A stretch of DNA of 64,000 nt, from NCBI GenBank assembly GCA_964187785.1, contig OZ076409.1, positions 2,792,001 to 2,856,000 on the forward strand. Reading direction: 5' to 3'. Both the position numbers and the translations under genes were made by a program. The stretch is from Amphiscolops sp. MND2022 (lineage: Eukaryota). Each line of letters opens with the position of its first letter. The stretch's first letter is position 1. The notes below the pieces were generated by a model. It saw only the letters and a list, made by a program, of their open reading frames with translations. It did no database searches and had not been told where the DNA came from. This document shows positions 33,310-50,581 of this stretch, piece by piece.

Positions 33310-35355
33310 TGTGGAAATTTTAGATTTTGGTGTTTTAGAAAGATCCCATCCCTTTTTGCGCGAAGCCTAAAACATAGATGGAACTATGTTAATCTCGTTT
33401 TTAGACCGTGGGAACAGTGAAAACAGCTGAAAAGGCTGACAATAGCGTGCTTCGATATGGCTTATTTGGCAAACTAGGTTTACTTAGTAAACGAAACTTC
33501 TTAGGCAAAAATTAACGAGCTAGCGAGTGACGTCAGCGATGAAATGATTCGAATCGGCTAAGTCGAAATTAATCTCTGAGAGCGAATTTTACTAAGTCCC
33601 ACTTTCGAGGGAAAAAATATTCTAAGATACACCATGAAAAATCAATCGTCATAAAATCGAAAACCCCCCCCCCCCAGTCAAGTTTTTCTCAAAGACTATT
33701 TATTGTAGAGACTTGAAATTTGGCACACGTATACCTGAACTGTTATGCTACCGATCTATAAAAAGAGAACCGAGCCGAGACCCCCCAGTCCCGGGCTATT
33801 AGCACCGGAAGTGACCTAGGTCGACCCCCCTATGAACTCATCGGCCAAGCACGGAATAAGTCGTATTATATATAGAATTGATAGCCCACACGATACTAGG
33901 CCCTTTGCGCATGTTTTCGGAACCCTATGACGCGCGTAGGAGGAGCACGGACCCTAAGTAAATAAACCCCGAATGTTATGTAAATAGCCACCGGATGGCC
34001 CGACGATCATGAAACTTACCCAATATGTTCACATAGCGACCCTAAGTAATATACATGAAAGATACATTGATCGGTCCACCACGCGCGGAGTAATGTTTGT
34101 TTAAGGCACGCGGGACCGGACGCGCGGGCCCGACCGATAAAGGACATTGACCGTGGCTTGTAATACCTCAAACGAACCGGAATGATGAATGTTGTCAATT
34201 TATAACGTGAACGAAACCGTATTTATAACCCATGCGGGGGTAGCCGCCTTAAGTAAACAAACGATACGCATAGCGTGTAACTCGGTAACCATTGACCCTA
34301 GGACGATATAACTTGGCATGTAGTGACATTAGATGATGACAAATAACTTCAAGGTCACAGATGGACCTCAAGGTCATCTTAGATGCAACCCCGGAACATA
34401 TAGGAAAACGTACGATAAAACATGTAAATCAGTGTCTTTAAGTGATAATTTATGCATTTCAGTCAGGCGGAACGATTCGCGATGCATTGCGCCCAAAAGG
34501 ATGATAGAAAAGTACCCCTTACACGTAGAGAACATGTAAACCATGTAGTTCAAGGTCATTGAGCAATCGTCTCGATATTAGAAATATCTCGGGTGACTTA
34601 AATTATTATTGAAATGTGGACTTCGAACAAGATGTGAATTACTTGACGTTGGTGGCAAAGAATGTTTAGCCGAAGTATAATTAGACGCGTTCACCATGCC
34701 ATAAAAGGAATAGTAAACATGAAGGTAAACACATGCAAATTCAAGACGTCGACGCCTGTATGTAACGAAAATGTCAATGTGATAGAATGTTAAGATGAGA
34801 TGATCAGAAACACGTGCAATAAACAAATATAGTTGAGGCGGATTTGGAATATAATTGAATAGGCAGAACCGAGTTAGAACGCTGGGAGCAAGTTGAGTCT
34901 CGCGGAGACAAGATACTTCTTCGGATTAACACTCGCGCTTCTCGACAACCGAGTTAGAGAGCTATCAGCAAGTTGAGCCTTAAACGAAGGCAAGAGACTT
35001 GGCTAAGCTAGAGAACTCGTTCGACAGTAGTTGTTCTAACGACAGAGATCCTACAAGTACGGGACTTGTGTCTGCAGTTGACTGAATCGTGGATCTCAGT
35101 CTTAGCTTGTTTTGTTATATTGATTTGATAATTCTTGAAGAGGCGGTTTTGTTACTAATATTAAAGAAATTGGATTATTGAGCGTGTCCCCTTTTCTTTA
35201 TCAATCGATGAGAGCCGAACTTGAGCACGGAGAGAACTTATGAAGAGAAATATACACGATAGAAAAACCGAAACTTACTCACCAAAAACCCTTTTTCTGA
35301 TAGAGTTAGATCCTTGGGAATTTCTCTCCGCCCTTGCTATCTAAAAATTTCTACA
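33310..35355 (+). repeat. 5' LTR of element 1
   Basis: TGTGGAAATT...TTTCTACA; AATAAA at 34818; direct repeat of 39417-41459. Confidence 0.95.
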
Positions 35356-35356
35356 G

Positions 35357-35375
35357 TGGCGCTCCTGGGTGGGCT
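35357..35375 (+). promoter_or_regulatory. Primer binding site, tRNA-Asn(GUU)-type
   Basis: TGGCGCTCCTGGGTGGGCT 1 nt after the LTR; closely matches the complement of the metazoan tRNA-Asn 3' end (...AGCCCACCCAGGGACGCCA) as I recall it. Confidence 0.75.
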
Positions 35376-35443
35376 ATTTTCGTAATTTGCTATCGTGTTA
35401 CAACTGGTGACTTTGATTTGGATTTGAATTGCTGATTTGGGAG

Positions 35444-47545: not shown

Positions 47546-48405
47546 GGATTCCTGATGAGTCGACAAACTTCTACAGGGTGACCATTTTCGCTGCACACAT
47601 CGCATCGACGGACACTGACCACTGTAGAAACAAATTGGCCCACCATATTCGTCAGACTACTCAATGCCCTAGTCATTTCATCCAACTGCTGCTTCATCTC
47701 CGTCACTGCAGTTTGATCTTCAGCCGCAGCAGCTGACTCCTGTGCAAGCCTGGCGTAAGCAACTCGTCTGCTCGGCCTAGTTCTCGCTGAGTTGGCAATA
47801 GCTTCCAATTCCACCGCTCTATCCACAGTACCAACAAATCCACGCGTTCGTTCTCGTAGCAAAACTTCTAGCAGGTCTGAATCTGATAGTCCATCTAAAA
47901 AACGTTCACGGAACAATTCGTCTCGCTGATCTGCTTCCTGATGACCAAAGACCAGCAGTCCCAAATTGCGAACGCGACGTGCAAACTCCCTCAAGGGTTC
48001 GCTCTCCTTCTGAACCAAACATTTGAATTCGTTGCGCCCTGCTCTATCGTTTCTTGTGACTCCCATCACTTGGTCCAAGTGCTCAAAGAGTGCTCGTAAA
48101 GTAGGTGCCCGTCGATTCACTACCTGAGTCTTCAGTTCCCGGGGTGCTGCCTGAAACTCTTCTAATGCATGTCCACTCAAACACACTGGCAGTGCACCGA
48201 TAGCCTCTGGGTCTGTCCACCTATTCGCTTCGGCCACTGCGATAAAGTGGGTCTTCCATTGAACCCAATCGGCAAACGAACTCGACGGAAACCTATCCGG
48301 TCGAATGGTTCCGCAATTGAAGATTCGATTCTGATTGCCATTCACTGCTCTTCCAACGGCCTGCATCGCAAACTCAAGCAGCTCACGTTTTGCGTCTTGA
48401 TCCAT
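47533..48405 (-). CDS. gag: Gag of element 2 with intact CCHC knuckle CDVCSENGHPVEVC
   Basis: Homologous to the element 1 Gag; CX2CX4HX4C. Confidence 0.88.
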   Translation of the reverse strand: MDQDAKRELLEFAMQAVGRAVNGNQNRIFNCGTIRPDRFPSSSFADWVQWKTHFIAVAEANRWTDPEAIGALPVCLSGHALEEFQAAPRELKTQVVNRRAPTLRALFEHLDQVMGVTRNDRAGRNEFKCLVQKESEPLREFARRVRNLGLLVFGHQEADQRDELFRERFLDGLSDSDLLEVLLRERTRGFVGTVDRAVELEAIANSARTRPSRRVAYARLAQESAAAAEDQTAVTEMKQQLDEMTRALSSLTNMVGQFVSTVVSVRRCDVCSENGHPVEVCRLIRNPLNL

Positions 48406-48537
48406 AATGAAATCCTTGTATAATATCCAACTCTACGAATATACATTCAAGTTGGAATCCAGAACTCGAAAAAAATGTTGTAAAACGTAACCAGTAAAAG
48501 AAAGCAAAGCAAAGCAAAGCCCACCCAGGAGCGCCAC

Positions 48538-50581
48538 TGTAGAAATTTTTAGATAGCAAGGGCGGAGAGAAATTCCCAAGGATCTAACTCTATCAGAAAA
48601 AGGGTTTTTGGTGAGTAAGTTTCGGTTTTTCTATCGTGTATAATTCTCTTCATAAGTTCTCTCCGTGCTCAAGTTCGGCTCTCATCGATTGATAAAGAAA
48701 AGGGGAAACGCTCAATAATCCAATTTCTTTAATATTAGTAACAAAACCGTCTCTTCAAGAATTATCAAATCAATATAACAAAACAAGCTAAGACTGAGAT
48801 CCACGATTCAGTCAACTGCAGACACAAGTCCCGTACTTGTAGAATCTCTGTCGTTAGAACAACTACTGTCGAACGAGTTCTCTGGCTTAGCCAAGTCTCT
48901 TGCCTTCGTTTAAGGCTCAACTTGCTGATAGCTCTCTAACTCGGTTCTCGAGAAGCGCGAGTGTTAATCCGAAGAAGTATCTTGTCTCCGCGAGACTCAA
49001 CTTGCTCCCAGCTTTCTAACTCGGTTCTGCCTATTCAATTATATTCCAAATCCGCCTCAACTATATTTGTTTATTGCACGTGTTTCTGATCATCTCACCT
49101 TAACATTCTATCACATTGACATTTTCGTTACATACAGGGCGTCGGCGTCTTGAATTTGCATGTGTTTACCTTCATGTTTACTATTCTTTTTATGGCATGG
49201 TGAACGCTTCTAATTATACTTCGGCTAAACATTCTTTGCCACCAACGTCAAGTAATTCACATCTTGTTCGAAGTCCACATTTCAATAATAATTTAAGTCA
49301 CCCGAGATAATTTTAACATCGAAGAAATTGCTCAATGACCTTCAACTACATGGTTTACATGCTTTCTACACGTACGAGGTACTTTTCTATCATCCTTTTG
49401 GGCGCAATGCATCGCGAATCGTTCCGCCTGACTGAAATGCATAAATTATCACGCAAAGACACTGATTTACATGTTTTATTGTATGTTTTCCTATATGTTC
49501 CGGGGTTGCATCTAAGATGACCTTGGGGTCCATCTGTGACCTTGAAGTTAATTGCCCTCATCTAATGTCACTACATGCCAAGTTATATCGTCCTAGGGTC
49601 AATGGTTACCGAGTTACACGCTATGCGTATCGTTTGTTTACTTAAGGCGGCTACCCCCGCATGGGTTATAAATACGGTTTCGTTCACGTTATAAATCGAC
49701 TACATTCATCATTCCGGTTCGTTTGAGGTATTACAAGCCACGGTCAATGTCCTTTATCGGTCGGGCCCGCGCGTCCGGTCCCGCGCGCCTTAAACAAACA
49801 TTACTCCGCGCGTGGTGGACCGATCAATGTATCTTTCATGTATATTACTTAGGGTCGCTATGTGAACATATTGGGTAAGTTTCATGATCGTCGGGCCATC
49901 CGGTGGCTATTTACATAACATTCGGGGTTTATTTACTTAGGGTCCGTGCTCCTCCTACGCGCGTCATAGGGTTCCGAAAATATGCGCAAAGGGCTTAGTA
50001 TCGTGTGGGCTATCAATTCTATATATAATACGACTTATTCCGTGCTTGGCCGATGAGTTCATAGGGGGGTCGACCTAGGTCACTTCCGGTGCTAATAGCC
50101 CGGGACTGGGGGGTCTCGGCTCGGTTCTCTTTTTATAGGCGTGTGGCATAACAGCTCAATTATCCGTGTGCCAAATTTCAGGTCTCTACAATAAATAGTC
50201 TTTGAGAAAAACTTGACTGGGGGGGGGGGTTTTCGATTTAGTGACGATTGATTTTTCATGGTGTATCTTAGAATATTTTTCCCTCGAAAGTGGGACTTAG
50301 TAAAATTCGCTCTCAGAGATTAATTTCGACTTAGCCGATTCGAATCATTTCATCGCTGACGTCACTCGCTAGCTCGTTAATTTTGCCTAAGAAGTTTCGT
50401 TTACTAAGTAAACCTAGTTTGCCAAATAAGCCATATCGAAGCACTCTATTGTCAGCCTTTTCAGCTGTTTTCACTGTTCCCACGGTCTAAAAACGAGATT
50501 AACATAGTTCCATCTATGTTTTAGGCTTCGCGCAAAAAGGGATGGGATCTTTCTAAAACACCAAAATCTAAAATTTCCACA
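48538..50581 (-). repeat. 5' LTR of element 2
   Basis: Followed on the minus strand by the same TGGCGCTCCTGGGTGGGCT PBS. Confidence 0.95.

Follow-up and report, generated by a model that had tools for sequence, protein, structure and literature searches.

Probable gene conversion between the arms of two independently inserted, inverted LTR retrotransposons around a cadherin exon in Amphiscolops

We analyzed a 64,000-nucleotide stretch of the Amphiscolops sp. MND2022 genome (assembly GCA_964187785.1, contig OZ076409.1, positions 2,792,001 to 2,856,000; hereafter the window), in which two long terminal repeat (LTR) retrotransposons of one family, E1 and E2, lie tail-to-tail around a single exon (exon C) of a cadherin gene. 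We propose that the facing arms of the two elements probably owe a long tract of complete identity to local arm-to-arm gene conversion without inversion. Apart from this apparent exchange at the DNA level, the data reveal no effect of the inverted repeat. The mechanisms themselves are already known from Alu elements, LTRs, and Y palindromes, and the locus represents a single pair of insertions in a single assembly; what appears to be new here is the DNA exchange between the E1 and E2 arms. The two elements, their LTRs, and the spacer between them are arranged in the window as follows.

33310-41459, plus strand: element E1, a Ty3/Gypsy-type LTR retrotransposon lacking pol, 8150 bp, target-site duplication (TSD) ATGGT, antisense to the host gene.
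33310-35355 and 39417-41459, plus strand: E1 LTRs of 2046 and 2043 bp; the primer-binding site (PBS) starts at 35357, and a polypurine tract precedes 39417.
42471-50581, minus strand: element E2, of the same family, 8111 bp, TSD ATTAG on both sides, sense to the host gene.
48538-50581 and 42471-44514, minus strand: outer and inner LTRs of E2, 2044 bp each.
41460-42470, no strand assigned: spacer of 1011 bp, holding the right part (41460-41760) of an element resembling a miniature inverted-repeat transposable element (MITE), exon C, and its splice signals.
41846-42147, minus strand: exon C, 302 nt, phase 1-0, open, AG/GT splice signals, cadherin match (PF00028, E=2.5e-5).
32879-33290, no strand assigned: left part of the MITE-like element, interrupted by E1; the window copy lacks about 350 bp of the middle.

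At the ends of E1, ATGGT is followed by TG at 33310 and CA is followed by ATGGT at 41459. Empty sites confirmed this TSD, as other copies of the MITE-like element (L003, L004) hold one ATGGT at the insertion site. The E1 LTR pair differs by 6 substitutions and 3 gap columns and the E2 pair at 5 mismatched columns; 48-53 LTR substitutions separate E1 from E2, compared with 5-6 within one element. Self-BLAST of the window aligned the inner arms (37031-41459 against 46898-42471) at 97.5% identity over 4437 columns and also paired the outer LTRs, at 97.3%, whereas the gag regions between the paired arms reached merely 50-70% identity per 200-bp window. The two TSDs, the different gag subfamilies, and the LTR divergence showed that E1 and E2 are separate insertions. 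A single inverted duplication or a fold-back misassembly was ruled out, because the two carry different TSDs, share only 57% of their gag residues, and have 49 mismatched sites in their inner LTRs. A past inversion of exon C on this haplotype was also ruled out: each element keeps its own intact TSD pair, and the two LTRs of any one element are 99.5-99.8% alike, which excludes a crossover. Thus, a first-pass annotation of the locus had correctly read two independent insertions, placed tail-to-tail across a 1011-bp gap holding the 302-nt exon, with arms near-identical for more than 4 kb and paired again at the outer LTRs; its suggestion that LTR-LTR recombination could invert the exon has no counterpart on this haplotype.

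From 367 exact LTR-PBS junctions of the family in 1.07 Gb, about 0.06 inverted pairs with a spacer of at most 1011 bp are expected by chance, and about 0.03 in tail-to-tail orientation. Among 100 of these 367 places listed, E1/E2 was the sole opposite-strand family pair within 20 kb. Such proximity is rare for the family but was assessed post hoc; it is plausible in a genome with many young families, and the pair is unusual without needing any special mechanism. Four other close family pairs, with both members on the same strand, proved to be tandem or segmental repeats, not independent neighbours, and thus supplied no replicate. Along the host gene, inverted pairs of at least 100 bp across the flanking introns were found at 5 of 35 exon positions, the other four measuring at most 327 bp compared with 4437 bp at exon C.

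The tracts of identity between the two arms are located as follows.

38232-39613, plus strand: identical tract on the E1 side, 1382 bp, equal to E2 44318-45699.
44318-45699, minus strand: identical tract on the E2 side, the likely recipient.
43491-43913, minus strand: second identical tract, 423 bp, in the E2 inner LTR, equal to E1 40018-40440.

Across the 1382 bp, E1 and E2 showed zero differences, and differences were dense on either side (60 in 37010-38231 and 52 in the inner LTR beyond 39613). This was the longest identical run in the 861 pairs formed by 42 elements; the next was 960 bp, and 1 of the 861 pairs reached 1000 bp. Three private single-nucleotide polymorphisms (SNPs), at 38827, 39062, and 39272, are common to E1 and E2 and set the minimum span of the proposed conversion at 446 bp. 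For comparison, a sister set of 40 copies was picked by gag likeness from several hundred, and 22 were parsed into LTR pairs and TSDs; the three bases were absent from all 37, 38, and 22 sister copies covering the respective sites. Genome-wide, the E1 base was found in 2 of 63, 2 of 74, and 2 of 16 matching copies, each time in E1 and E2 alone; these counts come from exact patterns carrying N at the SNP, by which copies altered elsewhere in the pattern are overlooked. The chance that the sole sharer is the neighbour is about 1 in 62 to 1 in 366, the three SNPs being counted as one event because they are linked. Outside the tract, each element carries 3 private substitutions in 1166 bp; inside it, neither has any of its own.

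The E2 LTR pair pointed the same way. One of its five differing columns coincides with a homopolymer boundary, and the remaining four all have the base of E1 in the inner LTR; one of these four sites falls in the 1382-bp tract and three fall in the 423-bp tract, which are the two longest identical tracts. Two of the four form a linked family dimorphism, for which both LTRs were concordant in 18 of 18 other E1-like elements shown, the other 22 copies being too divergent or incomplete. As to direction, copies with the left flank of E1 mostly differ from the tract at 7-30 positions (one at 62), and copies with the flank of E2 at 39-53, so that this weak test leans towards conversion from E1 to E2. 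Overall, the tract stands above background sharing, the derived alleles are limited to the two neighbours, and the flanking markers were not exchanged, features by which gene conversion is recognized.

Several points weigh against conversion. A single haploid assembly is the sole source, and homogenisation by assembly or polishing is possible. The family has a mosaic structure, and stretches of the tract are conserved in any case: 4 of 40 copies show 0 differences over 38232-38700, and LTR positions 1-197 match 4 others. Since parts of the tract are conserved family-wide, the true tract is perhaps far shorter than 1382 bp, and its sure portion is limited to the 446 bp that the outer private SNPs enclose. 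The LTR ages predict only 2.0-3.7 differences in the tract, for which zero has P = 0.13-0.02; at the private-site rate of the left flank P is 0.0008, although older variants may be counted in that rate. Of the four inner-LTR sites, two are private to the E2 outer LTR and may be new mutations there, and the other two could have arisen when a distant copy converted the outer LTR. The choice of the 40 sister copies by gag likeness and the copies with further changes that pattern searches overlook must also be counted, as must the weakness of the direction test. Finally, the family recombines in replication and shared blocks are normal in it; only the restriction to the neighbour indicates a process in cis.

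Two other accounts of the identity were weighed. Near-identical inverted arms are hard to assemble, and reads of one arm might have corrected the other during assembly or polishing; we regard such an artefact as highly improbable. A fold-back would give identity from the centre outwards, yet there are 49 mismatches in the inner LTRs, and the tract is found at a distance of 1.8-3.2 kb from the spacer. The TSDs and both junctions are clean, and short-read polishing would be expected to pull towards the common family base and not to copy a private one. The tract could instead have been inherited, with no exchange in cis, from one source element that is absent from this assembly, by template switching between co-packaged RNAs. 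This family is indeed recombinant: a type-2 gag is combined with an E1-type LTR in E2 itself and in 2 of 20 type-2 copies, and sharing of blocks up to 960 bp is frequent. We nevertheless consider a common source very unlikely, because it requires that the sole two carriers among 63-74 copies landed 1 kb apart and leaves unexplained why the inner but not the outer LTR of E2 matches E1.

Gene conversion between the arms thus remains the reading that we favour, and the events may be reconstructed as follows. E1 and E2 would have landed 1 kb apart by chance, within the long introns of a repeat-rich gene, with E1 probably inserted first. On at least two occasions, a break in one arm would then have been mended with the other arm, its nearest homologue, as template; one repair would have copied at least 446 bp and up to 1382 bp, probably from E1 to E2, and another a patch of 90-423 bp in the E2 inner LTR. 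No crossover appears to have accompanied these repairs on this haplotype, and exon C would not have been flipped. The pre-mRNA is predicted to fold into a multi-kilobase stem around exon C; most transcripts would probably keep the exon, with some circle formation, editing, or skipping as a by-product.

Such a history parallels known systems. Conversion between repeats rises with closeness (PMC8230782, PMC6598467, PMC4921805, PMC2996329): it is raised between neighbouring Alus within about 10 kb (PMC8230782, PMC6598467), and yeast Ty elements show a local donor preference (PMC2996329). Like conversion between neighbouring Alu, human LTR, and yeast Ty copies, the E1/E2 case combines a non-reciprocal tract, common derived alleles, and a nearby donor; unlike those cases, it involves two full-length 8-kb inverted elements and is seen in one genome, not in a pedigree or population. 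Its tract of 446-1382 bp compares with maxima of 14-450 bp for human Y LTRs (PMC4921805). Palindrome arms convert in kilobase tracts and inversion is rare, as in human Y palindrome P6 (PMC3723533), with which E1/E2 shares inverted arms, a kilobase-scale tract, and the absence of inversion; however, its arms come from two insertions and not from a duplication, their identity is 97.5% compared with more than 99.9%, and an exon occupies the spacer. The literature search, with most subscription papers outside it, found no paper on this locus, on acoel circular RNA, or on a pair of inverted full-length LTR elements that flank an exon and convert one another.

As a probable conversion between full-length LTR elements that inserted separately, the pair is clean and datable; hundreds of sister copies serve as controls, and the intact and different TSDs rule out duplication or crossover. 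It suggests that repair between elements can start while LTR divergence is still within 0.3% and that a neighbouring element, besides an element's own twin LTR, can distort LTR dating. A broader view, which we hold to be doubtful, is that of a converting palindrome at birth: two unrelated insertions would make arms around an essential exon, repair would start at once and raise arm identity, the DNA palindrome and the RNA stem would perfect themselves, and exon C would increasingly end up in circles or be lost from the mRNA, up to the point where an arm is removed by selection. If so, populations should hold empty, E1-only, unconverted double, and converted double stages, a natural series for the origin of palindromes and of circle-forming exons.

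The consequences of the inverted repeat for RNA depend on the host gene, whose other exons in the window are given below.

58940-58752, minus strand: exon A of the host cadherin gene.
56677-56899, minus strand: exon B, 223 nt, phase 0-1, joined in frame to exon C.
27600-27743, minus strand: exon C2, 144 nt, phase 0-0, next after exon C.
26638-26422, minus strand: exon D, downstream of C2.
21620-21502, minus strand: exon D2, downstream of D.
15169-15033, minus strand: exon E, downstream of D2.
6854-6654, minus strand: exon F, downstream of E.

The frame is open from exon A to exon D2 (398 codons); the D2-E join is out of phase because an exon was probably missed, and a tblastn search with cadherin relatives found no C-terminal exons past exon F. 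With a profile built from one cadherin relative, cadherin frames were found on the minus strand from C1:3,070,241 to 2,798,471, and a pattern including hand-added variants recovered 23 cadherin repeat linkers in 34 frames, all on one strand and extending across about 272 kb. The host gene would thus have some 23 cadherin repeats or more, spread over about 270 kb; treating the whole span as a single gene is our inference from sequence, with two tandem genes as the alternative. By identity, the best match of an upstream exon was a 'protocadherin-23-like' protein of the acoel Convolutriloba macropyga (51%), to which the upstream region is colinear over about 87 kb, and the top-scoring matches were cadherin-23 proteins (28-30%). 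The gene is therefore likely a long CDH23/FAT-type cadherin, and its bearer likely an acoel. The PCDH15-like label given at first pass was unsupported, as PCDH15 has about 11 cadherin repeats, compared with the 23 or more counted here. Protein searches with exon C returned nothing above 37% identity among the matches listed (1 match in one case; the best 150 of 2802, with long proteins crowding the ranking), and thus no transcript-derived protein attesting inclusion of the exon. A search of metagenome_contigs with a 27-mer from exon C gave 0 matches; records near this genome may be excluded from that collection.

Exon C lies 323 nt from E2 and 386 nt from E1, and E1/E2 as an RNA substrate represents an extreme test of the intronic pairing that an exon tolerates. 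A fold of the spacer plus 200 nt of each arm predicted a closed stem with exon C and both splice sites in its loop, in agreement with the loop first proposed for the pre-mRNA; this stem is trivial with such arms, and the prediction has no bearing on the situation in cells. The frameshift expected from exon C skipping was also borne out, with a stop 13 codons past the B-C2 junction, and a circular exon C would offer ATG frames of 86 and 12 codons only. A search for sequencing runs with 41765-42470 listed none, a result that speaks neither for nor against such transcripts. An Alu element is about 0.3 kb long, whereas the E1/E2 arms measure 4.4 kb plus the outer LTRs. Like the inverted Alu pairs that drive back-splicing (PMC11263572), they lie in both flanking introns and within 400 nt of the splice sites.

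Compatibly with conversion, the predicted stem might drive enough back-splicing or skipping of exon C to cut the dose of full-length cadherin, which we consider unlikely. The loop holds both splice sites at 323 and 386 nt from the arms, skipping shifts the frame, and in mammals inverted repeats in flanking introns promote back-splicing (PMC11263572). Linear splicing is, however, more efficient than back-splicing, which ADAR1 and DHX9 also counteract (PMC11263572), and the downstream arm is transcribed only after the exon donor, so the exon could be defined first. Exon C and its splice sites are intact, which argues in the same direction, but the insertions are too young for this to carry much weight. 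The main effect on the gene, if any, might come instead from the LTRs themselves, with the sense-oriented E2 ending transcripts early or starting new ones into exon C; part of this reading is that the inner LTRs face each other and could cause convergent transcription over the exon. We regard an LTR effect as possible but rather unlikely: LTRs bear signals for promoters and poly(A) addition, the orientation of E2 is that of the host gene, and three AATAAA hexamers occur on the LTR sense strand (positions 649, 1102, and 1507), but these are motifs only, such hexamers are frequent in AT-rich DNA, and the host gene introns carry many other retroelements.

The coding content of the two elements is as follows.

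35444-36373, plus strand: E1 gag, 309 aa, followed by a TTTAAAC motif.
36058-37635, plus strand: E1 long frame, 525 codons, overlapping gag.
47533-48405, minus strand: E2 gag, 57% identical to E1 gag; its PF03732 match (E=0.0054) did not pass the cut-off.
46298-47656, minus strand: E2 long frame, 452 codons, overlapping gag.
38883-39185, plus strand: small sense open reading frame (ORF), 100 aa, inside the identical tract and mirrored in E2.
38208-38504, minus strand: small antisense ORF, 98 aa, mirrored in E2.

E1 and E2 are young non-autonomous Ty3/Gypsy-type LTR retrotransposons, with TG...CA LTRs, a 5-bp TSD, a PBS, a polypurine tract, and gag kinship, and without pol. A Pfam search of the 525- and 452-codon frames found no pol domain or any other match. 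In both elements, a long acidic frame behind gag and a TTTAAAC motif occupies the position of pol, and in related copies gag and this frame are fused as one 690-codon frame (L081:389-2458). The motif and the frame overlap suggest a possible frameshift at TTTAAAC, but the predicted stem behind the motif did not exceed shuffled sequences in stability (z -0.74). Between the coding region and the 3' LTR, the two small ORFs have proteins 77-79% identical across subfamilies and are still open: the 100-aa ORF in 13 of 13 gap-free divergent copies, with 227, 137, and 504 changes at codon positions 1, 2, and 3, and the 98-aa ORF in 14 of 16, with 221, 128, and 531. Judged by this pattern they look like putative accessory genes; they had no Pfam or Atlas matches and are distinct from the transposase-like antisense gene of other elements in this genome.

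The gag subfamilies of E1 and E2 are both multi-copy (215 and 182 first-look candidates, 40 scored each), and near-identical gag proteins are present in ENA assemblies. In the parsed sister copies, LTR pairs differed by 0-18 substitutions, and 19 of 22 had a 5-bp TSD, the other 3 being tandem units. E2 is chimeric, its gag being of type 2 but its LTR and 3' region of E1 type: the LTRs of 18 of 20 type-2 copies fetched are just 83-90% like those of E2, to which the E1 LTR is 97.5% alike. The E1 gag is 73% identical to the gags of related elements with the pol order protease, reverse transcriptase (RT), RNase H, integrase (PR-RT-RH-IN; L083), and these relatives, which share the PBS and part of the LTR with the E1/E2 family, likely supply its enzymes in trans. 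Three such relatives (L083:364-8285, L084, and L085) encode a gag with a zinc knuckle and a 1420-codon PR-RT-RH-IN pol; their third frame of about 750 codons has a hydrophobic start and no Pfam match, and their LTR is about 90% like that of E1 over the first kilobase. E1 and E2 work like plant TR-GAG elements (PMC8704663), with two LTRs, gag, no protease, RT, or integrase, and fresh insertions with TSDs. However, they belong to an animal Ty3/Gypsy lineage and carry the extra long frame behind TTTAAAC and the two small conserved ORFs, so they were not assigned to TR-GAG, which is defined by a single Gag ORF.

Tandem arrays in which family members share LTRs (LTR-internal-LTR-internal-LTR) were observed at L061, L067, L068, L089-L090, L094-L097, and C6:26,107,653-26,120,755, and are a sign of unequal recombination; a 12.1-kb tandem repeat at L091-L093 is 99.8% identical. 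Another copy of the MITE-like element (L002:734-1953; G000:C1 ~3,026,600-3,027,824) lies about 194 kb from the window copy, apparently within the same cadherin gene, and has neither E1 nor the internal deletion. It includes 153 bp of the flank of the window copy, containing the final 68 nt of exon C and the donor site, which looks like flanking DNA captured past a damaged end.

Acoel genomes consist of 53-70% repeats, chiefly LTR elements (PMC9911081). In the same intron as E2, 720 bp from its outer end, lies a long interspersed nuclear element (51304-55207, plus strand) with ORF1, endonuclease, and RT, whose second frame is in three pieces owing to a stop and a frame change. An older LTR relative (83%) of window positions 48916-50581 lies inverted at G000:C1:2,868,395-2,870,043, 26 kb from the E2 outer LTR, so that a second, weaker inverted pair encloses exons A and B. 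An intron of the cadherin gene holds open frames of 3192 and 1430 codons (G000:C1:2,970,253-2,984,404, plus strand; L017-L016 region), which are unlike the surrounding gag-pol frames.

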